64,000 nucleotides of DNA from Verrucomicrobiota bacterium (GTDB lineage Bacteria > Verrucomicrobiota > Verrucomicrobiia > Limisphaerales > Palsa-1400): positions 4,094 to 68,093 of the forward strand of contig JBEKYR010000012.1 of NCBI GenBank assembly GCA_049510745.1, read 5' to 3'. Under the pieces are notes generated by a model, which ran no database searches, was not told the DNA's origin, and was given only the letters and a program-made list of their open reading frames with translations. Both the position numbers and the translations under genes were made by a program. Position 1 is the first letter of the stretch, and each line of letters begins with the position of its first letter. Of the stretch, positions 3-30,431 are shown one piece after another.

Positions 3-1454
3 CGCGATTTCCGGTCCATTCGACCGGTGCCTCCGCCGCAAGGTCTGCAAGCCAGCCTGCGCGGCTACCAGCAAGAGGGCCTCAATTGGCTGCAATTCCT
101 CCGCGACTACGGCCTGGGCGGCATCCTGGCCGATGACATGGGCCTGGGCAAAACCGTCCAGGCCCTGGCCCATCTGCTGGAGGAAAAAAACAGCGGCCGC
201 GCCGACCGCCCCAGCCTGGTCGTCGCCCCCACCAGCCTGATGACCAACTGGCGCCAGGAAACCGAGCGGTTTGCCCCCGCCCTCAAGCTCCTGGTGCTGC
301 ACGGCCAGGACCGCAAGGAGCACTTCGAGAAACTGCGCGACTACGACCTCATCGTCACCTCCTATCCCCTTCTGCCCCGCGACGAGGCCGTCCTCCTCAA
401 GGAACAATTCCACCTGGTTATACTTGACGAAGCCCAGTTCATCAAGAACCCCAAGACCAAGTACGCCCAGATCGTCTGCCAGTTGCGCGCCCGCCATCCC
501 CTCTGCCTCACCGGCACCCCCATGGAAAACCACCTCGGCGAACTCTGGTCCCAGTTCAACTTCCTCCTCCCCGGTTTCCTGGGCGACGAAGCCCGCTTTC
601 GCAAGCTCTTCCGCAACCCGATTGAAAAGGGCGGCGACACCGACCGCCGCGAGATGCTGGCCCGGCGCATCGCCCCCTTTGTCCTGCGCCGGCGCAAGGA
701 GCAGGTCGCCCGGGAATTGCCGCCGAAAACCGAGATCACCCAGAACGTCGAGCTGGCCGGCGCCCAGCGCGACCTCTACGAAACCATCCGCCTGGCCATG
801 CACGCCCGTGTTCAGGAGGAAGTCCGGAACAAGGGCCTGTCGCGCTCGCATATTATTATTCTTGACGCCCTCCTCAAGCTCCGCCAGGTCTGCTGCGACC
901 CGCGCCTGGTCAAGCTCGACGCCGCCCGCGCCGTGGCCGAGTCGGCCAAGCTGGAGTTGTTGATGGACCTGGTGCCCGAAATGCTGGCCGAAGGCCGCCG
1001 CATCCTGTTGTTCTCGCAATTCACCAGCATGCTGGCGCTCATTCAGGAGGAACTGGCCAGGCAAACCATCCCCTTCGTCCTGCTGACCGGGGACACGGTG
1101 GATCGCGCCACACCCATCCAGCGTTTCCAGAGCGGCCAGGTTCCCCTCTTTCTCATCAGCCTCAAGGCCGGCGGCACCGGCCTGAACCTCACCGCCGCCG
1201 ACACCGTCATCCATTACGATCCCTGGTGGAATCCCGCCGTCGAGACCCAGGCCACCGACCGCGCCCACCGCATCGGCCAGACCAAGTCCGTTTTCGTTTA
1301 CAAACTGATTACGGTGGGGACTGTCGAGGAGAAAATCCTCGCCCTGCAAACCCGCAAGCGCGACCTGGTCGAAGGTTTGTTGAACGAAAGCCGCAAGGAG
1401 ATGCCGCAACTGACGCCGGAAGATTTGCAAGTGCTCTTCGCCCCGCTCGGCTGA
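3..1454 (+). CDS. SNF2-family (RapA/HepA-like) DNA-dependent ATPase/helicase, 5' end cut by window edge
   Basis: The frame is open from base 3, so the GTG at 27 in the ORF track is probably internal. Motifs: 'DDMGLGKT' (Walker A), '[11 protein letters not shown]' (DEAx box), '[41 protein letters not shown]' (helicase C). Confidence 0.9.
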
Positions 1455-4700: not shown

Positions 4701-6233
4701 TTAATCCGTCCGGCTGGTGAAGCGGCGGTGCCGGGTGAAGACCGGGCGCAAGGCCAGCGATAATTCGTCCTGGATGGATTGCAACTCGCGATAGACCGAG
4801 ACGGCGGCCTTGGCCGGGCGCGCGATCTCGCTCTTGTTCAAACGCACGAAACGCGCAGTGATGTCGTTGATCTTGACGCGTTCGCCGCGCTGCTGGCGCC
4901 AGCACCACAGGGCCTGCAGGGCCGCCCCGTAGGCGGCGCCTTCGCTCACTTTGATGGTGACGACTTCCGCGTCGAAAACATCGGCCATGATCTGCCGCCA
5001 GAATTTGGATTTGGCCCCGCCGCCGGTGACGCGGATTTGGCGCGGCTTGACGCCCAGTTCGCGCAGGCGGCGCAAGCCGTAATTCATCCCCAGCGTGACT
5101 CCTTCCATGGCGGCGCGCGAGAAATGAGCGGCGGTGAAAGTTTTCTGGTTGGCGCCCAGCCAAACGCCAGTGCCGTGCGGGACGTTGGGGGTGCGCTCGC
5201 CTTCCAGGTAAGGCAGCAGGAGCAGGCCGCCGGAGCCGGCCGGGGCCTTGGCCGCCTCGGCCGCGAACTGCTCGTGAGTCAAGCCGAAATCCGCGCGCAC
5301 CATTTCGGTCGCGACGGTCACGTTCATGGTGCAGAGCAGCGGCAGCCAGCGGTTGGTGGAATCGCAGAAGGCGGCGATTTCCCCCAGCGGATCAATGACC
5401 GGCCGTTCCGAGCAGGCGTAAATCGTGCCGCTGGTGCCGAAGCTGGCCGTGACCACGCCCGCCAGCGTGTTGCCCGTGCCGATGGCCCCCATCATGTTGT
5501 CGCCGCCGCCGGCGCTGACCAGGACTTTCGTGCCCAGGCCCAGTTCGCGCGCCGTTTCGTCGCGCAAATGCCCGGCGGGCTGGTCGCTGCCGATCAGCGG
5601 GGGCAAAGCGCGCTCCAACTCCGGGTCGATGGCCTGGAGGACGGCGCGGGACCACTGGCGCTTTTTCACGTCGAGCAGGGCGGTGCCGCTGGCGTCGCCA
5701 AATTCCATGACCTTGTTGCCTGTCAACCAGAAATTCAAGTAATCGTGCGGCAGCAGCACGGTGGCCAGGCGGGCAAAATTCTTCGGCTCCTTGCGTTTGA
5801 GCCAGAGAATTTTGGAAGCGGTGAAGCCGGGCAGGATGGCGTTGCCGATTTCCTCGATGGCCGCCTTGACGCCGCCCAGTTTTTGCGTGATTAGGTCGCA
5901 CTCCGCCGCGGTCGAAGTGTCGCACCAAAGTTTGGCGGGCCGAATGACTTCGCCCTCCTTGTCCAGGGGCACAAAGCCGTGCTGCTGGCCGCTGACGCCG
6001 ATGGCGGCGACTTCGCCGGCGGAAGCGCCGGCCTTCTTGAGGGCGTCGCGGATGGCTTTGGCGGCGGCATCGCGCCAGGTGCGGGGATGCTGCTCCTTGG
6101 CGCCGGGGGGCAGGCCGGGGATCAAATCATAAGCGCGCGCCGCCTCGCCGACGACGGCGCCGTCGCGGGCATTGACGACCAGGACTTTGGTGGACTGGGT
6201 GCCACTATCGATGCCAAGAATAAGGGTGCGCAT
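4701..6233 (-). CDS. xylB: Xylulokinase (FGGY carbohydrate kinase)
   Basis: 'MRTLILGIDSGTQSTKVLVV', 'GVSGQQHGFVPLD', 'GGGDNMMGAIGTGN' and 'VTGGGAKSKFWRQIMADVF'. The ATG at 6233 is preferred over the TTG at 6239. Confidence 0.92.
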   Translation of the reverse strand: MRTLILGIDSGTQSTKVLVVNARDGAVVGEAARAYDLIPGLPPGAKEQHPRTWRDAAAKAIRDALKKAGASAGEVAAIGVSGQQHGFVPLDKEGEVIRPAKLWCDTSTAAECDLITQKLGGVKAAIEEIGNAILPGFTASKILWLKRKEPKNFARLATVLLPHDYLNFWLTGNKVMEFGDASGTALLDVKKRQWSRAVLQAIDPELERALPPLIGSDQPAGHLRDETARELGLGTKVLVSAGGGDNMMGAIGTGNTLAGVVTASFGTSGTIYACSERPVIDPLGEIAAFCDSTNRWLPLLCTMNVTVATEMVRADFGLTHEQFAAEAAKAPAGSGGLLLLPYLEGERTPNVPHGTGVWLGANQKTFTAAHFSRAAMEGVTLGMNYGLRRLRELGVKPRQIRVTGGGAKSKFWRQIMADVFDAEVVTIKVSEGAAYGAALQALWCWRQQRGERVKINDITARFVRLNKSEIARPAKAAVSVYRELQSIQDELSLALRPVFTRHRRFTSRTD

Positions 6234-6263
6234 AAGCAAAAAAACTGGGAGGTTCGAGCCGGT

Positions 6264-6437
6264 TCAGTCGGTGTCGCACAACACGAACCCGATGAGGGCG
6301 GAGAGCGTAATGATGAAGGCCGTCCCTACGAGCCATTTGCTGACCAGGATCACGCCCCAAATGGAGAGCCAGACTCCAAAAATGGCAGTGGCAAAGAGAA
6401 TGATTTCACCGCGGCTGCGTTCCATAGATTTATTCAT
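6264..6437 (-). CDS. Small (57 aa) two-helix membrane protein upstream of xylB
   Basis: Not in the ORF track because it is under 60 aa. Hand translation: MNKSMERSRGEIILFATAIFGVWLSIWGVILVSKWLVGTAFIITLSALIGFVLCDTD*. It lies 24 bp upstream of xylB on the same strand. Confidence 0.4.
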   Translation of the reverse strand: MNKSMERSRGEIILFATAIFGVWLSIWGVILVSKWLVGTAFIITLSALIGFVLCDTD

Positions 6438-6527
6438 CTGGCGGAGATATTAAGGTGAATCGGCCCGGCAGGCAAGCTCATCTTGGCGGAGAGGTTCATA
6501 TTTCAAGGGGGGGAGCGGGGGCTCAAA

Positions 6528-6579
6528 CTACCTTAAATCACCTTAAACTACCTTAAATCACCTTAAATTGGCTTAAAGG
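6528..6579. repeat. Tandem 20-bp repeat x2 (10-bp sub-unit ccttaaaNNN x4-5)
   Basis: 'ctaccttaaatcaccttaaa' at 6528-6547 and again at 6548-6567, followed by the degenerate 'ttggcttaaagg'. Confidence 0.85.
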
Positions 6580-7069
6580 ATTGGGGGGTGCTTGAATGGG
6601 CCAAAACGACCGATGGGACCAATGGGACGAATGAACGACCCGCTGGCGGAGCGGCTGGAGCCATCCCTGCCTTGCCCGATGTGATGAGTATTTCATCGAT
6701 GGATGTAGTAACACAGAGTTATGGATGTTGGCAAGGGTATGTTTCAAGAAAAGAGGATTTAACCGCAGAGAACGCAAAGAGCGCAAAGAGAAGGGGTTAT
6801 GGAGTTTTTGCCCGCAACCCCGAGAGCTTTCGGGGTGCAATACGCGGATTGAATCCAGAACTCATCGAAAAGGCGGGCGAAAGATATTGGCGCGAGATTG
6901 ATCGCTATGCCGAGCTTTCCGAGTTTGTAGGTGAAGCCTGCCGACATCTTCGGCGCAGTCAGCGACGTCGAACTTTGATCCGCGCCTTTTGGCAACAGGC
7001 GGAGCTTTCTTTGTGATTTTGTATTACTCATTTATGCGAGCCTCAATAATTTCACCAGAACTTCCGGCG

Positions 7070-7807
7070 TCACTCTTTTGGAGTCGCGCCGGCCTCTTTC
7101 ACTCGCTTGGCAACAATCTCGGTCGTGGCGAAATCCTCCACTTTGCGCGTCAATTTGATTTCATCCCCAGAAATTTTGCCGGTGTAGTCAATAGTAATTG
7201 CCTGGTCCTGAATCTTGAGCGGCTCGGTGAAGGAAATGTCGCCACCGGTCACTTTGCCTGTGATGTCAGTGGTTGTCTTTTCTTCGTTCACCTCGCGCGT
7301 CGCCTTGCCGGTGAGTTTGCCGCCATCCACCTTGAATTCGTAAAGGTATTTTTGATGACCGACCTGGCTGTCGAATTCTGACTGCCATTTGCCCGCCGCG
7401 TCCGCTATTGCGCCAGACGCGCCTTCCTTGTCCCGCTTCGCAACGATTTCGTTGCTCCCGAAGTCCCCGACCTTGCGTGTAAATTTGATTTCATCACCCG
7501 TGACCTTGCCGGTATATTCGATGCGGAGATCCTGGTCTCCGGTCTTGACCAGTTCGACGAACGAAATCTCGTCGCCGTTGATTTTGCCCTCCTGGATCGC
7601 CACCGTGGCTTTTTCTCCGTCACGGTCGCGGAAGGCTTTGCCGGTGAGTTTGTCGCCCTCGGTTTTGAATTCATAGGTATATTTGAGGTGCCAGTCCTGG
7701 ACTTGAAACTCGGATTTCCACCTGCCATTCACGTCGGCGGCGCGAAGCGTGCCCAGCAGGCCAAGGAGCAGGACGGTGGAGAGAATTGAAGATGTCATTG
7801 CTTTCAT
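7070..7807 (-). CDS. Secreted beta-rich protein made of two tandem ~105-aa repeats
   Basis: Signal peptide 'MKAMTSSILSTVLLLGLLGTLRA'. Repeat 1 reads 'GRWKSEF...YTGKVTGDEIKFTRKVGDFGSNEIVAKR'. Repeat 2 reads 'GKWQSEF...YTGKISGDEIKLTRKVEDFATTEIVAKR'. Confidence 0.8.
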   Translation of the reverse strand: MKAMTSSILSTVLLLGLLGTLRAADVNGRWKSEFQVQDWHLKYTYEFKTEGDKLTGKAFRDRDGEKATVAIQEGKINGDEISFVELVKTGDQDLRIEYTGKVTGDEIKFTRKVGDFGSNEIVAKRDKEGASGAIADAAGKWQSEFDSQVGHQKYLYEFKVDGGKLTGKATREVNEEKTTTDITGKVTGGDISFTEPLKIQDQAITIDYTGKISGDEIKLTRKVEDFATTEIVAKRVKEAGATPKE

Positions 7808-11152: not shown

Positions 11153-13815
11153 TCACGCGACCCAATGGACCCATTCCAGCGGATTCCGCCGGCCGAGTTT
11201 CAAATGGATTTCCACCGGCTTTCCTTCCGGCAAGTGCAGATCGCACGCGGCAATGTCCCGTTGCGGCTTCGCCTTCAAAATACCGGCAGGCGCGGCAATG
11301 TCTTCAATTCCATATCGCGCCAGCAAGGTGATGTCCTGCGGTTTCACCGAGGTAACGGTTAAGTCCACCGTCCGAGCTTCCATGTCCCAAGCCAGTTTAT
11401 TGAGTCGCGCAAAAGTGTGGAGTTGCATCCCGTTGATGGATCCCTTCACCAGTGATGGAGGAAGGGCCGGAAGCACCTCAATCACACCGGGTCGGGCGTA
11501 GGCCAGCATTTCCATCATGATTGTGGGAATCCCGCCTTGCGCATCCGGCATGACCCTGGAGTAGGGGTCGTGAGAACACCGGAGCGTGGGGCCCACGTAG
11601 CCTTCTTCAATCAGTTGCCGCAACTCGCTGTCCACCATGTAGCTGTCTTTGAGCCGGGCCCCAACCAAAGCGCGATGGCAGCGGCCATGAGCTGCCAGCC
11701 TCTCCGGAATACGGCGCCGGTCGGCAATCATGACGGCCTTGGCCAACTGCGGCGTGCGGTCCGGATCAATTTCGTCGCCGGGCCATGCTCCGTAGAGATG
11801 AGAGATGTGCCGATGAACATAACGCTCTCCCAAAGTGGGCCAGGCCCATTCCTTCATGGCGCCGTCCGGTTCGAGCAGGTAGGGCGGCAATTTCGCCAGT
11901 ATCGCCTTCCATTTCGGCACGCTCTCGGCCTCAATGCCCAGCAGTTCGCAAGCCTCGACCAAATTGGCCAGGACTTCCCGGCACACCGCGATGTCCATGC
12001 TGGCGTTAATCACCATCATGCATGAAGGGTTCAGGCTGCCCGGATTGTTCTCCGGAGAGAAGGATGGGACGAAGATGTAGTTCCCATCCTTGTCCGTCAC
12101 CGTCAGGAAATCCTCGTAAAACAGCGCCAGGTCTTTATATGCCGGCACCACGCGCTTGCGGAGGAAATCCAGGTCTCCCGTGACCAGGTAGTGGTCCCAG
12201 AACGGGCGCACACACCAGGGGCCGGCGGCAAGCCAGTAGGGATGCGGCCAGGTTTCTCCGGTTGCGGTCGAACCAGCATGGTCGTACATGGTTTCGACGC
12301 CCATCTCTTTGCTCGGCGTGAGGGCAAAATGGGTGCCGCGCATGCCGAAAATATTCTTGGCGTTGGTGCGGAAGTCCGAGACCAGGCTCTCCATCCAGTT
12401 GAAGTAGGCTTCCTCGCCTTCGCGGTGATCGCCCAAGGCCATGGGCGCGAGCTGCAGGTTGATGTTGGCGTTGGTCTCAGCCGACATGCTGCAGTATTTC
12501 CCGCTGGTCAGGATGAACCAGTAGCGGCACATGTCGAATAACTTCTCGAGATAAGCGGCCGAATAACCCGGGCTCGACCGCTGATCCGACAGGAGCTCCT
12601 CGGAAGACAATCCATATTGCGAGGCGCCGCCGAAATCCACGGTGACGCGGTTAAGCATCTCGGACTGGACCTTCCGGCCTCGCTCCAGCAGGGCCTCATA
12701 GTCCGGAGTAAGCCCTTCCACTGCCAGTCGTAGCGCTTCCACCTTGTCCTCGGTGTAGTCGGGGAAGTATTCGAGGCGCGTGAGCAGCATCACGGAAGTC
12801 GCGTTCTCGACGACCAGCACGTTCCCCTCCATCCGGGCCGCGCCACCGTCGCGGACCACGCGGGTCACACCGGCGTAGCCCCGATTGTTGACGGAGGGAT
12901 CCAAATGGCCCTTATAGATCAGGCGCTGCTCGTTGCAGTCTTGCTGAACATTGCTGGATCCTCCGCCCCCGCCACCCGGCGGACCGCCCCCCCCGCCGCC
13001 TCTTCCCCCGCCACGACCTCCCCCCCGGCAGACAAAGCGATTCGGACATTCACCGACTGTCCTTTGGGGGCGGTGAGCCATTGAACCACAAGGTTGTCGG
13101 GTCGGGAGGTAAAAGTCCGGCGAACCCACTCACCGCGCTCGTCCGTCCAGTGGACCTTCACCTCGGTGCTCTCGAAATCAACCGTGCGGAGATAGTCCTT
13201 GACCGACGCGCTTTTTGGAAACTCAAGGCGCATGGAGAATCCCCCGCCTGCGCCGAACCCTATGCCGCCGGGCGCGGTTGGGCCTTCATGCCATTTGTGG
13301 TAGCCGAGTGCGGCAGCGTCGTGATATTTTCCGTCCAGCAACATTTGCCGCAACTGCGGTAAAATTTCCGCGACCTTGGGCGCCTCGAAGGGCCTCCGAC
13401 GCGGCACATACAGCATTTCGTGGCGGAAAGGAATCTGTTCGGTGTAGGGATCGCACGTCAACTCAATGTTGACGGCTCCATTGCCAGAGATGAGCCCGCC
13501 ATTTCCGGGCGTAATACTGCAAAAGCCCCGCTGCGGCACAATCTTCCGCTTGATCCGTTCCGCCAATGGCATCGGCGAAATCTCAACGTCCCCGGGAAGA
13601 TTTGATTTCGCCAGCACCGGCGCCTTGGGCAGGAACTTATCCTCCTGCGCGCGGCGAAGATAGTCAGCGGATCGGTTGTCCCCCGGCAGCCCTTCCGTTT
13701 GTCCTGTGGGTTGTTGGGAACCGCCTTCGCTGGCCGCAAGCATCGGGGGGAACTTCAGTGAACCGGCCAAGCCGGCAGCGACCGCACCTGTTTTAAGAAA
13801 ATCTCTGCGCCTCAT
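11153..13815 (-). pseudogene. GH95-like paralog 2, split by a frameshift inside a poly-G / Gly-rich tract
   Basis: The N-terminal part (ATG 13815, Tat motif 'MRRRDFLKTGAVAAGLAG') stops at 12919. The C-terminal part continues in another frame from the G-rich tract at 12955-13030 to 11153. Both parts are collinear with paralog 1. Confidence 0.6.
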
Positions 13816-13859
13816 AATTTCCTCGTCTGGATTGGCTCCGGGAGAATTTTGGGACTCTT

Positions 13860-15548
13860 CTAGCTTAACAAGATTTTGCGAACCTCGCCTTCGGGGTCGT
13901 CCACCATGCGGCATACGTTGTCGAATACCATCGTTGGGCACCCATCCGAGTTGAACGGCATCCAGGTCAAACCGCTCTGGCTGGGATTGCCCGTGCGAGC
14001 GAAATTCGCCCAGGCCGTGGCCATCTTCTTTGCCAGCTTTTGCGCCTTCGGCGTGTTCCCGGTGCCCTGTTCGCAACGCTTCGTGTTGTCAAAGCAGAAA
14101 GCCAGTTCGGCCGTGTGCCACGCGCCGGCATCCTCCAACATCGGCGATTGCCAGGTGAAGTAGTAGGCAAAGACCGGCGCGCCCTTCTGGTCGCACTTCA
14201 TCTTGGCCATGCGGGTGACGTTGTTGCGCACCAGCAGGCCGCTCACGCCGTAGGAAAGCGTGCGGATGCTCTTCTCCGGATGCGCCTTCTTCATCGCGGC
14301 AATCAGCGTGGTGGCCTTGGCATCGCCCAAGACTCCAGCCAGGGTGGCATGCCACTCCGCCTCAGTCGGCTTGGAAGACATCCGGTTCCCTTCCTCACTC
14401 ACCGAGCCGATCAACATCGGCACGTTCTTGGAAATTTCGGGAGCGGCTTCATAAAAGGAGCGCATGGTGATCAGCCGGCCATCAACTGTCGGTCCCATGC
14501 CGACGCGCGGCGTGGTCCCTGAGGGTGATCCCATCCCGAGACCCCGCTGCGCGGGCGGGTTGATCTTGGCAGCGGCGGCGGTGGCAGCCGCGTTCAGTTT
14601 GGCCCACTCCATTTTCTGTAGCGCGCCGATATCGTTCGGCCCCAGCCCCAACTCGACCATGATCTGTTTCGCCAGCGCCCGGGATTGCTCGGTGCCGGGA
14701 GGATTGCCGCCCCCGCCCGACTGCACAGAAGCGCGATGGAACAGCCCCGCCGCCGACGGCATGCCCATGAGCGTGGTCACCTTGGAGCCGCCGCCCGACT
14801 GGCCATAAATCATGACGTTGTTCGGATCGCCGCCGAAATTCGCAATGTTGTCCCGGACCCAACGCAGCGCCGCGACCAAGTCGGTCATTCCGATGTTGAC
14901 CGAATCAGCATAAGCGGCCCCGCCGATTTCAGACAGGTCGAAGAATCCGAGGATATTGAGGCGATGATTGACCGACACCTGGACGATGTCATGATGTCGC
15001 GCCATCTGCGCTCCTTCGTGCGAAGGCAACTCATAGGACGAGCCGAAGCTGAAACCGCCGCCATGAAAATAGACCATCACCGGGCGTTTGCCGGTCAGGC
15101 TGGACGTCCAGATGTTGAGCTTGAGCATGTCTTCGCTCATGTAGCCGTCGTCCCAATCCTGAATGAACGATTGCTCGATGGCCGTGTAGTCATGCAGCCG
15201 CTGCGGGCAGTTGGCGCCATAGATCAGGGCGGGGTGCTCGCCGTCCCACGCCTTTGGAGGTTTGACCGGAAGCCAGCGGTTCTCGCCGCCCGTATCCTGG
15301 CCATACGGTATTCCTTTGAAGCTGAAGACGCCGTCATCGAGAAAGCCGCGCACCTTTCCATATTGCGTATTTGCGACTGCCGAACGCGGCGTGGAGCAGT
15401 TTCCCGGCGCCTGGTGCGCGGAAGTCTTGGTGCTGTCGGACGCCCGCGCTGTTCCAGGCAGTGCGATTCCCAAGCCCGCTGTAGCAGAGAGCAGCAGCGC
15501 CTGGCGGCGGGTGAGTTTGTTACGATGCATGTAATCTGAATTTGACAT
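13860..15548 (-). CDS. Tat-exported type-B carboxylesterase/lipase (PnbA-like)
   Basis: 'TRRQALLLSATAGLG' (Tat), 'VMVYFHGGGFSFGS' (oxyanion hole), 'MIYGQSGGGSKV' (GxSxG nucleophile elbow). Confidence 0.88.
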   Translation of the reverse strand: MSNSDYMHRNKLTRRQALLLSATAGLGIALPGTARASDSTKTSAHQAPGNCSTPRSAVANTQYGKVRGFLDDGVFSFKGIPYGQDTGGENRWLPVKPPKAWDGEHPALIYGANCPQRLHDYTAIEQSFIQDWDDGYMSEDMLKLNIWTSSLTGKRPVMVYFHGGGFSFGSSYELPSHEGAQMARHHDIVQVSVNHRLNILGFFDLSEIGGAAYADSVNIGMTDLVAALRWVRDNIANFGGDPNNVMIYGQSGGGSKVTTLMGMPSAAGLFHRASVQSGGGGNPPGTEQSRALAKQIMVELGLGPNDIGALQKMEWAKLNAAATAAAAKINPPAQRGLGMGSPSGTTPRVGMGPTVDGRLITMRSFYEAAPEISKNVPMLIGSVSEEGNRMSSKPTEAEWHATLAGVLGDAKATTLIAAMKKAHPEKSIRTLSYGVSGLLVRNNVTRMAKMKCDQKGAPVFAYYFTWQSPMLEDAGAWHTAELAFCFDNTKRCEQGTGNTPKAQKLAKKMATAWANFARTGNPSQSGLTWMPFNSDGCPTMVFDNVCRMVDDPEGEVRKILLS

Positions 15549-21511: not shown

Positions 21512-23626
21512 ATGATCAGCCTGGTCGATGCTCAACCCGCCGGGGCGCCGGCCGGCCTGGTCGCGCAGGTCGCGGAAATTTTCTCGCCCGCCGGGATTTT
21601 GTCCAAATCCCCCAACTTCGAATACCGTCCGCAACAGCAGCAAATGGCGGTGGCGGTGGCGCGGGCGTTGGAAGAAAACGAGCATTTGATCGTCGAAGCC
21701 GGCACCGGCGTGGGCAAGAGCCTGGCCTACTTGATTCCGGCCATTTTTCACGCCGTGGCGCGGAACCGGAAGGCCGTCATCTCGACGCACACCATTAATT
21801 TGCAGGAGCAACTGATCCAAAAAGACCTGCCGATGCTGAAACACATCCTGCCGGTCGAGTTCAAATTTTCCATGCTCAAGGGCCGCCAGAATTATCTCTG
21901 CACCCGCCGCCTCTGGAAAGTGCGGCAGCAGGGACAGCAGCTTTTCACCTCGACAGGCCAGCAGGAGTTGGAGCGCATTCACGAATGGTCCCTGAAAACG
22001 GACGAGGGAAGCCTGTCGGATTTCGAGGTCGAGCCGGACCCGCAAGTGTGGCAGCAGGTCTGCTCGGAGCGGGGCTTGTGCAGTCCCAAATCGTGCGGGC
22101 GCGGGTCGGATTTTGTAAAGGGCGGCGGGGTCCCGTGCTTTTATCAGCAGGCGCGCAGCCAGATGCTCGGCGCGGACGTGCTGGTGCTCAATCACACGCT
22201 GCTGTTCACGCAATTGGGCGGACGGGAGGACGAAGCGGCCGGTGGCGTGCTGTTCCGGAACGATTTTGTCGTCTTTGACGAGGCGCACACGGTCGAGCGG
22301 GTGGCCTCGGCCCACATCGGCCTGAGCGTTTCCACCGCCCAAGTGCGCTACGGATTGCAACGGCTCTGGAACCCCAAGACCAAGAAGGGCCTGCTGGCCG
22401 TCTTGCGCCGCGGCAAGGAGCAAGTGGTCGAGGAGGCGTTGAAGGAGGCGGACAAGTTTTTTGCCGCGGTCGAGGCGGCCTGCGACGAGATCGCCGCGCG
22501 GCGGGAACGCCAGGCGGCGGCGCATACTTGGAGCGTCTTGCGCATCCGCCAATGCGATCTGGTGCCCGACACCCTCACCCTGCCTCTGGACCGGGTGCGG
22601 GAAGAGGTCAGCGCGCTGATTAAAACGGTCGATGACAAGGACACCGCGCAAGAATTGGCGGAGTGCAACCGGCGCCTGGCTGAGTTGCGCGAGGAACTGG
22701 CCATCTTTTTGGGTCAACGGGCCGAGGACCACGTCTATTGGGTGGAACGGACCGGCAAAGCCCAACGCCACCTGGCCCTCAACGCCGCTCCCATCAATGT
22801 GGCCGCTTATCTGCGCGAACGATTGTTCGGCTCGGACACTTCCGTCATCATGACCAGCGCGACCCTGGCGGTGAAACTGGACGAAAGCCCCGGCCCGGTT
22901 TCGCGCAAGCAGTCCGCTCCGCCGGACGCCGGCGCATCCGCCGACAAGGCGCCGCCGCTGCTTTATTTCGCCCGCCAAGTGGGCGGGGAAAAAGCCAATT
23001 TGCTCCAGGCCGGATCGCCCTTCGATTACGAGCGGCAAATGAAGCTCTATGTTGTCGGCAAGATGCCGGACCCGCGCGACGCCGGTTACCAAGCCAGCCT
23101 GGTCCATTGGATCAAACACTTCGTGACCCTGACGCAGGGAAAGGCGTTTGTGCTCTTCACCAATTTCAAACTCATGCTGGAGGTGGGCGCGCAAATGGAG
23201 CCGTTTTTCGAGAAACTGGGGGTCGAATGTTTCGTGCAAGGCACCGGCACGCCCCGCTCGCTCATGCTGGAAAAATTCAAAAAGGACGTGCATTCCGTGC
23301 TCTTCGGAACGGACAGCTTTTGGCAGGGGGTCGATGTGCCCGGAGAGAGCCTTTCCAACGTCATCATCACGCGCCTGCCCTTCGCCGTGCCCGACCATCC
23401 GTTGATCGAGGCGCGGATCGAGGCCATCGAAGCGCGCGGCGGCAATTCCTTCCTGGAATTCTCCCTGCCCGAAGCCGTCTTGAAATTCCGTCAGGGCGTT
23501 GGAAGATTGATCCGGGCAAAAACCGACACCGGCATCGTGGTCGTGCTGGACAATCGAATCCTGACCAAGCGCTACGGCCGGGCCTTCCTTTCCTCAGCCC
23601 CTAAATGCCCGGTGGAAATTGTTTGA
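21512..23626 (+). CDS. dinG: DinG/XPD-family ATP-dependent DNA helicase with Fe-S cysteines
   Basis: 'VEAGTGVGKSLAYLIPA', 'VVFDEAHTVE', a cysteine cluster (LCTRRL...VCSE...LCSPKSC...PCF), 'FGTDSFWQGVDVPGE', 'RQGVGRLIR'. Confidence 0.9.
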   Translation: MISLVDAQPAGAPAGLVAQVAEIFSPAGILSKSPNFEYRPQQQQMAVAVARALEENEHLIVEAGTGVGKSLAYLIPAIFHAVARNRKAVISTHTINLQEQLIQKDLPMLKHILPVEFKFSMLKGRQNYLCTRRLWKVRQQGQQLFTSTGQQELERIHEWSLKTDEGSLSDFEVEPDPQVWQQVCSERGLCSPKSCGRGSDFVKGGGVPCFYQQARSQMLGADVLVLNHTLLFTQLGGREDEAAGGVLFRNDFVVFDEAHTVERVASAHIGLSVSTAQVRYGLQRLWNPKTKKGLLAVLRRGKEQVVEEALKEADKFFAAVEAACDEIAARRERQAAAHTWSVLRIRQCDLVPDTLTLPLDRVREEVSALIKTVDDKDTAQELAECNRRLAELREELAIFLGQRAEDHVYWVERTGKAQRHLALNAAPINVAAYLRERLFGSDTSVIMTSATLAVKLDESPGPVSRKQSAPPDAGASADKAPPLLYFARQVGGEKANLLQAGSPFDYERQMKLYVVGKMPDPRDAGYQASLVHWIKHFVTLTQGKAFVLFTNFKLMLEVGAQMEPFFEKLGVECFVQGTGTPRSLMLEKFKKDVHSVLFGTDSFWQGVDVPGESLSNVIITRLPFAVPDHPLIEARIEAIEARGGNSFLEFSLPEAVLKFRQGVGRLIRAKTDTGIVVVLDNRILTKRYGRAFLSSAPKCPVEIV

Positions 23627-23631
23627 AGACC

Positions 23632-25452
23632 ATGCCATTCTCACCCGTCACGAACACGACTGCGAAAGCTGAACTTGATAATCTCTATGCCCGATTGAAG
23701 GGCATTCGCCAATTGCGGGGCGCGATGACCTCCCAAACCCCCAAGGATTTTAACCAGATTGTCGCAAGGCTCGGTGCCCTCCATGTTCTCACAGAGAAGG
23801 AAGTGTTTTCGCTCCGCGTTAATGAGTTTGCAGGGATACAGGAAGCAATGTTCTCAGGAATTCCAGAAAGAGCTGCCCAGTTATTGGCACTTTTAGAGCA
23901 CCGAAATTCGAAGACAATCGAGACTAAGGATGGCGCGAACGCGCCAAAAACAAGTATGGCCGCCAAAATCAAATTCAATGCGAGACGACTGATGGAGAAG
24001 GCCATCGAGGTGATGAGGCAGTCTCTTCAGGAGCCGCGAAGGGATGGCAAGTCGCCACCCAAGGTGGGTGCGGTGCTTTATAAAGCGGATGGTTCGATCG
24101 AAGCGGCGTGCCGCGGCGAGTTGCGTTGGGGAGATCACGCCGAGTTTGCCTTGCTCGAACGAAAGAACCGGCACAGCAGGCTGGACGGGGCAAAACTGTT
24201 TACGACTTTAGAGCCGTGCGCGCCCGGAGCGCGGAAGCATCCCAAGCTCGCATGCGCCGAGCGCATCGTGAATGCGCGCATCAAAGAAGTGTGGGTGGGA
24301 ATCGAAGACCCCGACCCGACGGTGGATCGCAAGGGGATCAAGTTTCTGCAGGACTTCGGCGTGACGGTGCATATGTTCGAGCGGGATTTGCAGGAAATCA
24401 TCAAGGCAGAGAACAAAGAGTTTATCAAACAGGCGTTGGCGCGGGCGGCAACCGCTGAAGAGGAGACGAAAGTCGTGACGTTGTCGGCTTTCGAGCAGCC
24501 GGTTGCCCATGCCGACTTGAAAGACTTCTCTGGTGAAGCGTTGGAGCAATACCGAGCGATTGCCAACATCAATGAGGCAGTTGGCTCGGAAGCGTTCAAT
24601 CGCCGCCTGGTGCAGCAGGGTTTATTGCAAGCGAAGGGGAAGACATTTGTTCCTTCGGGCTTTGGGTTGCTGTTGTTCGGCAAGGCGCCGCGCGATTCGA
24701 TGCCCCAGGCGGGATTACTTGGAACGATTCACCTTTCCGGCGGAAAGGAAGACACGCCGCGCAATTTTGACGGGCCGCAGGTTTTTGTTCCCGAACAGGC
24801 GCTCCGATGGCTACGCGACAAATTGCCCAACCCGATTGACCGCTCGGAGGCGCGCCGGCAGGAATTAAACAGACCTTTTTTTGAACTGGTGCGCGAAGGC
24901 ATCGTCAACGCCCTTGTCCATCGTGATTACTCGATTGTCGGTGCGAAATGCCAGTTGGTTGTGACGTCAGACACCGTCGTCATCAAGAGCCCTGGCAAGC
25001 CGGTCGAACCCATCACGCTTGGGCAATTGCAGGCTTTCAATGCGCCGATGTTGAGTCGCAACCCGACCCTTCACTACGTCTTTGCCAAAATGGAATTGGC
25101 GGAGGAACGCGGGCTTGGGTTGAAGTCGATGCGGAATCGCGTCACTGAAGCCGGTCTTCCACTGCCAAATTACAGCTGGGAAAATCCTTATCTGGTATTG
25201 ACGCTATTCCGTAGTCCAGCCAGTGCTGTTCGTGGTTTGAGTCCCAAAGTGCTCGACCGTCTAAACGAAGGCGAGAAAGCATCTTGGCAGTTTGTCGCCG
25301 GCCGGGAATCTGTAACTAGTCCGGAATTGATGAAGCAGATGGGCTTTGATGAACGCAAAGCTCAACGTGTCCTGAAGAAACTGCAGGCTGCCGGCTTGCT
25401 TCGCCGCGTTGGTAAGGGCCCGGCAACGCGTTACGAGATGGTTCGCCCATGA
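23632..25452 (+). CDS. Fusion protein: unknown helical N-domain, RibD/CDA-type zinc deaminase, COG2865 (RecG-C/HATPase_c_4, Schlafen-associated) core and winged-helix tail
   Basis: Deaminase: 'GDHAEFALLE' (HAE) and 'TTLEPCAPGARKHPKLACAERI' (PC...C). COG2865 core: 'GFGLLLFGKAP', 'VREGIVNALVHRDYS', 'VVIKSPGKP', 'LSRNPTLHYVFAKMELAEERGLGL'. wHTH: 'VTSPELMKQMGFDERKAQRVLKKLQAAGLLRRVGKGPATRY'. An alternative ATG at 23605 would overlap dinG by 22 nt. Confidence 0.8.
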   Translation: MPFSPVTNTTAKAELDNLYARLKGIRQLRGAMTSQTPKDFNQIVARLGALHVLTEKEVFSLRVNEFAGIQEAMFSGIPERAAQLLALLEHRNSKTIETKDGANAPKTSMAAKIKFNARRLMEKAIEVMRQSLQEPRRDGKSPPKVGAVLYKADGSIEAACRGELRWGDHAEFALLERKNRHSRLDGAKLFTTLEPCAPGARKHPKLACAERIVNARIKEVWVGIEDPDPTVDRKGIKFLQDFGVTVHMFERDLQEIIKAENKEFIKQALARAATAEEETKVVTLSAFEQPVAHADLKDFSGEALEQYRAIANINEAVGSEAFNRRLVQQGLLQAKGKTFVPSGFGLLLFGKAPRDSMPQAGLLGTIHLSGGKEDTPRNFDGPQVFVPEQALRWLRDKLPNPIDRSEARRQELNRPFFELVREGIVNALVHRDYSIVGAKCQLVVTSDTVVIKSPGKPVEPITLGQLQAFNAPMLSRNPTLHYVFAKMELAEERGLGLKSMRNRVTEAGLPLPNYSWENPYLVLTLFRSPASAVRGLSPKVLDRLNEGEKASWQFVAGRESVTSPELMKQMGFDERKAQRVLKKLQAAGLLRRVGKGPATRYEMVRP

Positions 25453-25463
25453 GTTTGTGTCCT

Positions 25464-25557
25464 GACAATAATCCCGACAAAGTGTCGGGATTCGGGTGGC
25501 TGCTGAGTCAGAAACTGGGAATCCCGACAATAATCCCGACAAAGTGTCGGGATTCGG
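25464..25557. repeat. Two perfect 32-bp direct repeats, each containing a 10-bp-stem palindrome, 30 bp apart
   Basis: 'gacaataatcccgacaaagtgtcgggattcgg' at 25464-25495 and at 25526-25557. The internal hairpin is aatcccgaca-aag-tgtcgggatt. The first copy starts 12 nt after the stop at 25452. Confidence 0.9.
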
Positions 25558-25595
25558 CTTCCCGCAAAAGCCCATGCCTACAAATCCACCAAACC

Positions 25596-25624
25596 AAAAC
25601 GGGTCAATAACGAAAACGGGTCAA
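25596..25624. repeat. Short direct repeats 'aaaacgggtcaa' x2 (17-bp period) plus a partial third
   Basis: Copies at 25596-25607 and 25613-25624, followed by 'aacggggtc'. Confidence 0.7.
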
Positions 25625-29981: not shown

Positions 29982-30431
29982 ATGAGCGCAATAACACTAC
30001 AACCGTCGAACAAGACAGTGGGAGGCTGGCTAATCGCGCTCATTCTCTGGTTCGGCTTTTGGATACCTGCCGGTGTTCAAGGGGATACGGCGACCATTAA
30101 GATGTTTTTTGCTCCTGTTGTCAACCAGTCTCCAAGGTTGCGCACAGTGTCCAGCATATGCAGTTTGCTGTTATGGCTTACTGCAATTGTCAGCGTTTGT
30201 TCCGCGTACGTTTTGGCTTTCAGGAAGCCAGCAGCCGTCATTATTGCGAAACGCGGCTTGATTGTAATAACGGTTGCGCGGTTGTGCTTAATGGTAGGCG
30301 TTCTACTATTGGCGCAGCCTGCTTTACGGGACATTCCATTTGGTGTTTTGGCTAGTCCGCTGATCTGGCTGGCAATCTGGTACACTTATCTGGTTCGTTC
30401 CAAAAGAGTAAAGGAAACATATGTGCTTTAA
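29982..30431 (+). CDS. DUF2569-like four-helix membrane protein
   Basis: 'GGWLIALILWFGFW' near the N-terminus, four hydrophobic helices, and the C-terminal 'YTYLVRSKRVKETYV', as I recall the DUF2569 pattern. Confidence 0.65.
   Translation: MSAITLQPSNKTVGGWLIALILWFGFWIPAGVQGDTATIKMFFAPVVNQSPRLRTVSSICSLLLWLTAIVSVCSAYVLAFRKPAAVIIAKRGLIVITVARLCLMVGVLLLAQPALRDIPFGVLASPLIWLAIWYTYLVRSKRVKETYVL

Follow-up and report, generated by a model that had tools for sequence, protein, structure and literature searches.

A RibD-like deaminase joined to a GHKL and winged-helix module, with a predicted operator array behind its gene: a candidate nucleotide-acting effector from a Verrucomicrobiota genome

A stretch of 64,000 nucleotides from a Verrucomicrobiota bacterium (GenBank assembly GCA_049510745.1, contig JBEKYR010000012.1, positions 4,094 to 68,093 of the forward strand), called the window in this text, carries directly behind dinG a gene whose product joins a RibD-like zinc deaminase to a GHKL ATPase-like module and a winged helix. 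Two repeat units follow the gene, and we predict that they are the operators read by its winged helix. All coordinates below are positions in the window, unless another locus is named. The features are as follows:

23605..25452, + strand: full open reading frame (ORF), 615 aa, or 606 aa from ATG 23632, with an in-frame stop at 23602-23604 just before it
23605..23955, + strand: lineage-specific 5' extension, 117 codons (108 from ATG 23632), GC 0.50, in no homolog
23956..25452, + strand: family-conserved gene, 498 aa, its first residue the Met of MAAKIKFNARRLMEKAIE
23968..24459, + strand: RibD-like zinc deaminase of the cytidine deaminase (CDA) fold, HAE at 24136-24144, PC at 24214-24219, second Cys at 24253-24255
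24460..25260, + strand: linker and GHKL (Bergerat-type) ATPase-like module, N-box REGIVNALVHRDY from about 24892
25267..25440, + strand: C-terminal winged helix-turn-helix (wHTH), recognition helix DERKAQRVLKKL at 25348-25383
25460..25495, + strand: predicted operator unit 1, class CCA, TCCTGACAAT (direct half-site, 1 mismatch), then AATCCCGACA-AAG-TGTCGGGATT
25522..25557, + strand: predicted operator unit 2, TCCCGACAAT, then AATCCCGACA-AAG-TGTCGGGATT, 62 nt after unit 1

Pfam residue numbers are counted here from ATG 23632 (the 606-aa form), and invariant and recognition-helix residues follow the numbering of the 498-aa form. Pfam dCMP_cyt_deam_1 (PF00383) matches residues 121-223 (E 4e-10, 40 bits against a cut-off of 25), and a PDB sequence search aligns HAE and PC...C with the zinc ligands and the catalytic Glu of B. 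subtilis RibG/RibD. The complete CDA-fold deaminase claimed by the original prediction, which was made from the letters alone, is therefore borne out. RibD/RibG (TIGR00326; PDB 2b3z, 4g3m) is the best match in both sequence and fold, and the two have in common the HxE and PC-insert-C zinc site, the DPxP loop, and a basic residue at the phosphate site. The RibD-like clade is marked by an insert within CxxC and by an extended strand4-helix4 loop, the DPNP region (PMC3239186). These traits are present in the form of PC-x11-C with a His-containing basic insert and of DPDPTVDRKGI, which aligns to DPNPLVAGRGI of RibG; the DPDP ribose loop is thus kept, and an invariant Arg stands where RibG has Lys79. 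In RibG, Lys79 contacts the phosphate, and Asp101 and Asn103 contact the ribose hydroxyls (PMC8256712). Since these three are aligned with an invariant Arg, Asp, and Asp, and the closest relatives are RibD enzymes, the comparison points to a predicted substrate of mononucleotide type rather than a nucleic acid; the original prediction had named dC nucleotides, DNA, or RNA. Weak Pfam matches to Inv-AAD and MafB19 and distant Foldseek matches to APOBEC are also seen.

The protein differs from RibD/RibG in having no reductase, a score far below the cut-off, a C...C insert three residues longer, and Asp for Asn103; no rib genes are nearby, and the genomic context is entirely different. The NCBIfam RibD model (TIGR00326) gives 56 bits against a cut-off of 156.35 and is matched only at positions 16-134 of 343, so that a reductase domain is absent, and no rib genes lie within about 8 kb of the window gene; both absences had been called correctly from the letters. 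With a partial match below the cut-off and no rib neighbours, a bifunctional RibD/RibG riboflavin enzyme was rejected. In the deaminase-fold survey of Iyer et al. 2011, RibD-like enzymes appear in riboflavin synthesis only (PMC3239186).

The rest of the protein is of the COG2865 type, as was first proposed. Pfam HATPase_c_4 (PF13749) matches residues 437-524 (E 2e-15, 57 bits against a cut-off of 26), with a core at 24940-25203, and the SPG and ERGLG motifs are invariant. At 554-606, wHTH families of Pfam (TrmB/MarR) match only below threshold; an AlphaFold model built from 56 sequences shows three helices and a beta wing at 546-603, with a predicted local distance difference test score (pLDDT) above 75 for residues 113-606. 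The top Foldseek match of the model is 3lmm (DIP2311; E 6e-12), followed by RibD deaminase domains (root-mean-square deviation 2.6 A over 151 columns, 30% identity). The structure model and the structural search thus support the domain reading of the original prediction, the first 110 aa or so being modelled without confidence. In 56 full-length representatives the residues H61, P87, E314, N318, H322, Y325, S345, G347, N369, and G388 are invariant, and 55 of the 56 keep both the deaminase and PF13749, down to 28% identity.

From about residue 288 to its end, the protein aligns with canonical AlbA_2+HATPase_c_4 'ATP-binding proteins', and no Pfam match to PF04326 (SLFN_AlbA_2) is found at E<=1. 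Because the alignment begins just past their AlbA_2, the deaminase evidently stands in place of the Schlafen/AlbA_2 domain of COG2865 proteins, an effector swap that agrees with the position originally assigned to it. PF04326 with PF13749, usually with a C-terminal helix-turn-helix (HTH), is the commonest prokaryotic Schlafen architecture, termed 'HisKinase' or 'HisKinase-HTH' (PMC13056530) and 'Schlatpase' (bioRxiv 10.64898/2026.05.29.728809). The linker, the GHKL module (E..N box, SPG, ERG.G), and the winged helix of these Schlatpase-HTH proteins, of which DIP2311 (PDB 3lmm) is the sole solved example, are homologous to those of the present family (tblastn 25-30% identity over residues 180-497), and the overall size is alike; the difference is that the Schlafen/AlbA_2 nuclease is absent here and a zinc deaminase is found instead. 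A deaminase is not mentioned in PMC13056530 or in bioRxiv 10.64898/2026.05.29.728809, and no published pairing of a deaminase with HATPase_c_4, or this domain order, was found in the literature searched, in line with the first impression that the order is not a described system.

The family is large and widely scattered. The query has matches to more than 3000 database proteins, and in a scan of one genome per species relatives occur in at least 373 of 185,579 species, from more than 15 phyla. The best 80 of these at least 373 species matched are 56-76% identical to the query and belong to phyla that include Verrucomicrobiota, Chloroflexota, Proteobacteria, Acidobacteriota, Firmicutes, Cyanobacteria, Planctomycetota, Bacteroidota, and Elusimicrobiota; the closest homolog is 83% identical. 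The C-terminal half has 4500 matches among 1.8 billion representatives. In databases the family goes by the name 'ATP-binding protein' or is misnamed 'RecG'. The family is horizontally mobile. Searches of IMG/VR viral contigs, PLSDB plasmids, and GenBank phages yielded no relatives with the deaminase; there the C-terminal module alone matches, to canonical AlbA_2+PF13749 proteins.

The repeats behind the gene, which the original prediction had not noted, recur throughout the family. Comparison of the 350 nt past the stop codons among the loci gives 1136 significant pairs, and the general unit that emerges consists of three 9-mers, ATC-NN-G-N-CA, arranged direct/direct/inverted in a 12-nt register. 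From one to four units lie within 400 nt after the stop in 65 of 78 loci, and 111 units are found in these intervals against 4 in the remaining 1.05 Mb. Of 122 units, 106 are oriented alike, the spacing from one unit to the next is 61-63 nt, and in four loci a unit lies upstream of the gene instead. In the window each unit is 36 nt long and its AATCCCGACA-AAG-TGTCGGGATT part is a perfect palindrome, which is seen nowhere else in the 64 kb (0.01 matches expected); the exact 9-mer is likewise confined to the array. On the transcribed strand each unit can form a perfect 10-bp stem with a 3-nt loop. The repeat region has no match in Rfam, and a terminator scan finds no terminator-like tail or U-tract at the repeats. 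Readings of the repeats as integron attC sites, REP elements, or CRISPR were dropped, as there is no recombinase linkage, there are no other copies of the 9-mer in the 64 kb, and classes are mixed within arrays.

Three variable bases of the 9-mer set the site classes CCA, GCA, CGA, GGC, CCC, CGC, and GCC, and all three 9-mers of one unit change together. Between the class of the first unit and the sequence of the recognition helix (residues 465-472; DERKAQRV in the window), the following co-variation is seen:

Site class CCA: helix ERKAQR(V/I)
Site class GCA: helix xR(T/K)AQRH
Site class CGA: helix xRTARRH
Site classes CCC, GCC, TCC: helix NRTALNH
Site class GGC: helix NRTAKNH
Site class CGC: helix ERTAR(F/R)H

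Position 470 is Q in 26/26 xCA, R in 15/15 CGx, K in 6/7 GGC, and L in 7/8 CCC sites, and residues 451-477 contain all of the top eight columns by mutual information. When proteins are compared by residues 1-420, the nearest neighbour has the same site class only 18 times out of 66, and the co-variation is therefore not simple phylogeny. Loci L079 and L083 illustrate this point: their bodies are 96% identical, the helices carry K-N and R-E, and the classes are GGC and CGC, respectively. Such pairs keep 88-98% nucleotide identity up to about nt 1260-1350 and then fall to 40-55% through the end of the helix-coding part and the sites. The 3' end of the gene and the sites are thus exchanged jointly as a mosaic specificity module, and the placement of the sites directly behind the helix-coding end would keep reader and target linked in recombination. 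These patterns argue for the winged helix as a predicted sequence-specific reader of ATCCCGACA units. The pairing of Arg or Lys with G, together with the concerted change of an unpaired third copy, favours readout of duplex DNA rather than of an RNA hairpin. A putative recognition code relates residues 466/470/471 to 9-mer bases 4, 5, and 7. In the original prediction the winged helix was a tail; its presence was read correctly, but its co-variation with the adjacent repeat classes makes it more than a tail, and a mechanism for the protein has to accommodate this.

Arrays of mixed class occur in L063, L082, L042, and L022, and the distal units of another class in such arrays look like relics of earlier cassettes. 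In one Myxococcales metagenome-assembled genome (MAG), JAJZQG01, two copies of the family, L060 (CGC) and L079 (GGC), have helices matching their classes, which is consistent with selection against cross-talk. Similar arrays lie beside canonical genes. On the Ca. Chlorohelix plasmid NZ_CP128402.1 (L088 3333-3378), a canonical AlbA_2+PF13749+HTH gene has AATCCCGCA in direct/direct/inverted order 14-60 nt upstream of its start, and this half-site is nearly equal to that of the deaminase family. On a plasmid or prophage of Streptococcus respiraculi (NZ_CP022681.1; L087 4991-5150), about 16 tandem 10-nt repeats TAGTTTATTG run from the stop of a canonical AlbA_2+PF13749 gene, which has a LexA-family repressor on one side and an integrase on the other. 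Schlatpase-HTH proteins may therefore have cognate arrays as a rule. Neither operator arrays nor helix-site co-variation have been described for either group, and the very similar sites of L088 add to the likeness between them; the sites of the present family are mostly 3' of the gene.

The genomic context of the family was examined by calling ORFs in 79 non-redundant loci and labelling them by BLAST to Pfam-verified representatives. Restriction-modification (RM) genes lie within 10 kb on the same strand in 40 of the 79. Type I systems account for 33 loci, typically in the order hsdM-hsdS-gene-hsdR, and a type III-like pair for seven, in the order RE_endonuc/ResIII protein, gene, 940-aa N6_N4 methylase. 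In the Pfam tally, upstream neighbours are led by Methylase_S, RE_endonuc, AAA_13, AAA_21/15, and ResIII, and downstream neighbours by HsdR, N6_N4_Mtase, and RadC; Abi_C, RhuM, GmrSD, integrases, and transposases are found as well. In 61 of 73 loci the gene ahead runs in the same direction, and in 23 the gap to it is at most 30 nt or the two overlap. Gene and neighbouring HsdR co-evolve weakly (Pearson r = 0.22), so that the gene and the RM system are not inherited strictly as one unit.

The closest homolog (83% identity; L001) lies inside a type I operon beside GmrSD. The L001/L002 operon (5943-7751; 12999-14453) is a dense defence island that holds this GmrSD, a type IV enzyme, along with several ORFs that have no annotation and a protein of 484 aa whose C-terminal domain is SLFN_AlbA_2; this protein was considered as a relative and rejected, being unrelated to the query. 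Loci L015, L030, L046, L053, L080, and L086 share a three-gene block made of an RE_endonuc/ResIII protein of about 1017 aa, the deaminase gene, and the 940-aa N6_N4 methylase, and in this block the 270 nt upstream are 72-77% identical across phyla. In a Chloroflexia MAG (OY969567.1; L008 8573-11485), a single ORF of 970 aa comprises an HsdS (Methylase_S) domain and the whole deaminase-GHKL-wHTH protein. This fusion may be either genuine or an assembly frameshift, and it is treated as anecdotal because hsdS appears split over two frames. Schlatpase modules are likewise found fused to HsdS (in Poribacteria) or stand-alone in RM operons (bioRxiv 10.64898/2026.05.29.728809), so that association with type I RM, HsdS fusion included, is a further likeness between the two groups.

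The window copy is set apart from this pattern. The genes around it encode AhpC/TSA, an LbH transferase, DinG, a metallophosphoesterase, and a response regulator. In verrucomicrobial relatives whose DinG is 86-88% identical, LbH-dinG is kept and other genes follow, with no member of the family. The gene being missing behind dinG in these relatives, the window copy is a horizontally acquired, solitary orphan insertion behind a core dinG, at a synteny break. All conserved residues and both predicted cognate operator units are nevertheless intact. It had been proposed to ask whether homologs sit in defence islands or are conserved next to dinG, and the comparison gives RM linkage in about half of the loci and absence behind the dinG of close relatives. 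The suspected defence association is thus upheld, and is strong, for the family, whereas the window copy itself stands alone among housekeeping genes.

With moderate confidence, we propose that the protein is an ATP-switched nucleotide-deaminase effector of the defence type, tethered or regulated via its own operators. A RibD-like zinc deaminase replaces the Schlafen tRNA nuclease ahead of the GHKL ATP-binding module and the winged helix, and would act on a 5'-phospho(deoxy)ribosyl mononucleotide. In SLFN-pAgo, PF13749 binds and hydrolyses ATP via an E..N pair, and ATP-driven tetramerisation assembles the active tRNase (bioRxiv 10.64898/2026.05.29.728809); by analogy, ATP binding would lead to oligomerisation and switch the effector on. 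The protein would be held and/or autoregulated at its own operator array, from which it may also gate a downstream hsdR. When triggered, it would alter the nucleotide pool, and restriction would be backed up in this way by a second-line or abortive defence whose function is akin to that of PrrC or of the dCTP-deaminase systems. The defence role is suggested by the genomic association and by analogy to Schlafen systems. Since Schlafen with PF13749 (and HTH) is established as an immune-type effector plus regulator in two 2026 papers, an effector swap is a natural reading.

With this family, the newly recognised Schlafen-GHKL-HTH immune architecture gains a second predicted effector chemistry, that of a deaminase where a tRNA nuclease had been known, which argues that GHKL-HTH is a portable regulatory chassis. 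The HTH of this chassis gains a first concrete and testable function, the reading of a cognate array beside the gene, with evident swapping of the specificity module. The family is also a widespread passenger, so far without annotation, of restriction operons of type I and of the type III-like kind, and could explain RM-linked phenotypes, and a compact enzyme with a swappable DNA-addressing helix would be of interest for base editing if it acts on DNA. A bolder version, which we regard as doubtful, is that of a modular 'DNA-addressed deaminase', in which an exchangeable winged-helix/operator cassette parks the enzyme on the chromosome, often ahead of hsdR, and infection or loss of restriction releases or activates it. 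This would be a new logic, a defence effector (or restriction controller) stored on and licensed by its own DNA array.

Several observations weigh against the proposed defence effector. For an arms-race protein, 56-83% identity across phyla is an unusual degree of conservation, and about half of the loci, the window included, are without RM or defence neighbours. Operators 3' of the gene are odd for simple autorepression, and the sites lie at varying distances from hsdR, an estimated 39-209 nt. ATP binding by the GHKL module is predicted from its motifs. Schlafen fusions of the HisKinase type gave no protection on the phage panel used (PMC13056530). Membership in a PADLOC defence family was rejected, as the only matches are weak, partial ones to Ago-associated SLFN/GHKL and dCTPase models; a defensive dCTP deaminase in particular (dCTPase PDLC02373) was rejected at E 0.0046 and 13.9 bits over residues 169-220 only.

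The same data can be read in other ways. The family could be a transcriptional controller of restriction genes, similar to a C protein, with the deaminase and GHKL parts as a nucleotide-sensing input: the winged helix, bound to the array between the gene and hsdR (or a methylase), would gate or time expression, and the classes would diversify against cross-talk between RM cassettes. The position of the sites in the gene-hsdR intergenic region of type I loci fits this well, and so do the two copies of differing class in one MAG (L060 CGC, L079 GGC), the direct-direct-inverted sites upstream of the canonical gene of L088, and the resemblance of the helix/site specificity groups, with their modular exchange, to C-protein/C-box groups. 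But the sites are kept in orphan loci, such as the window, where downstream genes are unrelated or on the opposite strand; type III-like loci have a methylase downstream rather than a nuclease; the distance from site to hsdR varies; and a controller has no need for family-wide invariant H-A-E/PC..C and ATP-box residues. We consider this explanation unlikely. Somewhat less probable to us is a bifunctional metabolic enzyme-repressor in the style of BirA, PutA, or NadR, that is, a self-regulated salvage or sanitising deaminase without immune function whose RM linkage reflects hitch-hiking in mobile islands. It would account for the high conservation across phyla, the RibD-like active site of mononucleotide type, and the half or so of the loci that lack defence neighbours. 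It is at odds with a patchy distribution (at least 373 of 185,579 species) and clear horizontal transfer, with the precise recurrent slot between hsdS and hsdR or in type III-like operons, often translationally coupled, and with a regulatory module that is the partner of immune Schlafen nucleases.

Two further readings concern what is done at the array itself, and both seem to us very improbable. A DNA deaminase anchored at its sites might deaminate nearby DNA or invading DNA that bears such sites, causing local mutagenesis or marking it for repair nucleases. The helix-site co-variation would provide the sequence-specific anchoring, and the CDA fold does include DNA mutators, to which the weak Inv-AAD/MafB19 and distant APOBEC matches could be taken to point. 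The closest relatives, however, are nucleotide-type RibD enzymes and not APOBEC or DddA; cytosines in the sites and flanks are conserved across phyla and hence not eroded by C-to-T changes; and units of three half-sites would be very rare in phage genomes. Carrying slightly less weight still is the reading of the repeats as RNA elements in the 3' untranslated region, acting as hairpin stabilisers, terminators, or an inhibitory RNA like that of type III toxin-antitoxin systems. Tandem units that each form a perfect stem-loop on the transcribed strand, with compensatory changes in the arms, are what such elements would look like. Yet six of nine stem positions are invariant, and the arms vary jointly with a third direct copy that is unpaired. 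The variable bases follow residues on a single face of the recognition helix (R or K with G, Q or L with C), U-tract and Rfam match are both lacking, and four loci as well as a canonical relative have their sites ahead of the gene. Type III toxin-antitoxin RNA repeats were rejected specifically, on account of class-mixed arrays, 9-mers that track the HTH helix, and the lack of an RNase domain.

Among known systems, the proposed effector can be set beside the nucleotide-depleting deaminase defences, reportedly the dCTP deaminase of Tal et al. 2022 and DcdV/DifV of Vibrio cholerae. These are said to combine, in a single gene, a CDA-fold effector with an NTP (nucleoside triphosphate)-binding regulatory domain under cis-encoded nucleic-acid control, and to act on the mononucleotide pool, as would the protein described here. 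They belong to another clade, and the regulator is P-loop kinase-like and controlled by a small RNA there, against GHKL+wHTH and HTH-read DNA here. PrrC and RloC are anticodon nucleases with an ABC-type ATPase that are embedded in type I RM loci. In 33 of 79 family loci the gene likewise stands singly between hsdM/S and hsdR, the window copy being solitary. The family would further resemble them as an NTPase regulator joined to a latent toxic effector, and as a suggested back-up for blocked restriction. It differs in having its own DNA sites, and the one hint of an interaction with the RM complex is a possible HsdS fusion. The window protein has no Pfam or PADLOC match to an ABC-type ATPase or an anticodon nuclease domain. 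Type II C proteins are Xre-type HTH dimers of about 80 aa with sites upstream of their own gene. An HTH protein in an RM operon, repeated or inverted sites, and specificity groups that evolve with the sites are common to both; the present protein is a 498-aa winged-helix enzyme with sites mostly downstream.

The 5' end of the ORF requires a separate comment. The stop of dinG is at 23624-23626, ATG 23632 sits 5 nt beyond it, and ATG 23605 would overlap dinG by 22 nt; these coordinates, and the 606 aa from ATG 23632, agree with those first given. In about 120 listed homologs and 82 loci, however, the start corresponds to ATG 23956 (codon 118 of the ORF), the Met codon of MAAKIKF, and nearly all homologs are 485-500 aa long. 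The 117-codon extension has no homolog detected in 86 related loci or in a collection of 5.8 billion proteins, so it is assigned to no family, and its pLDDT is below 50 in the AlphaFold model. It is thus best regarded as a private feature of this genome and not as a family domain, and the view that about 125 aa of helical sequence form part of the architecture has to be given up. The frame of the extension is open from the stop at 23602, and the other five frames hold 1-7 stops. As such an open frame survives in only 50 of 20000 shuffles, the extension is probably translated, or was so until recently. The GC content at third codon positions is 0.65 in the gene against 0.79-0.82 in dinG and uvrB, in agreement with the earlier remark that the gene is AT-richer than its flanks. 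Scans for sigma-70 promoters and intrinsic terminators around the gene found nothing. For one 100%-identical database fragment, P0035, the contig of origin was not traced.

A few minor observations concern other parts of the window. Past the predicted operator units, at 25592-25624, AAC[C/G]AAAACGGGTCAA occurs twice as a direct repeat with 17-nt spacing; it lies within the 409-nt spacer before the metallophosphoesterase gene and is not conserved at the locus of the closest homolog. The segment 29400-31250 has a GC content of 0.49-0.54 and short ORFs only, including a DUF2569 protein at 29982-30431, and may be another acquired segment. An ORF for an SNF2-type helicase with a GLGKT motif enters from the start of the window (27-1454).

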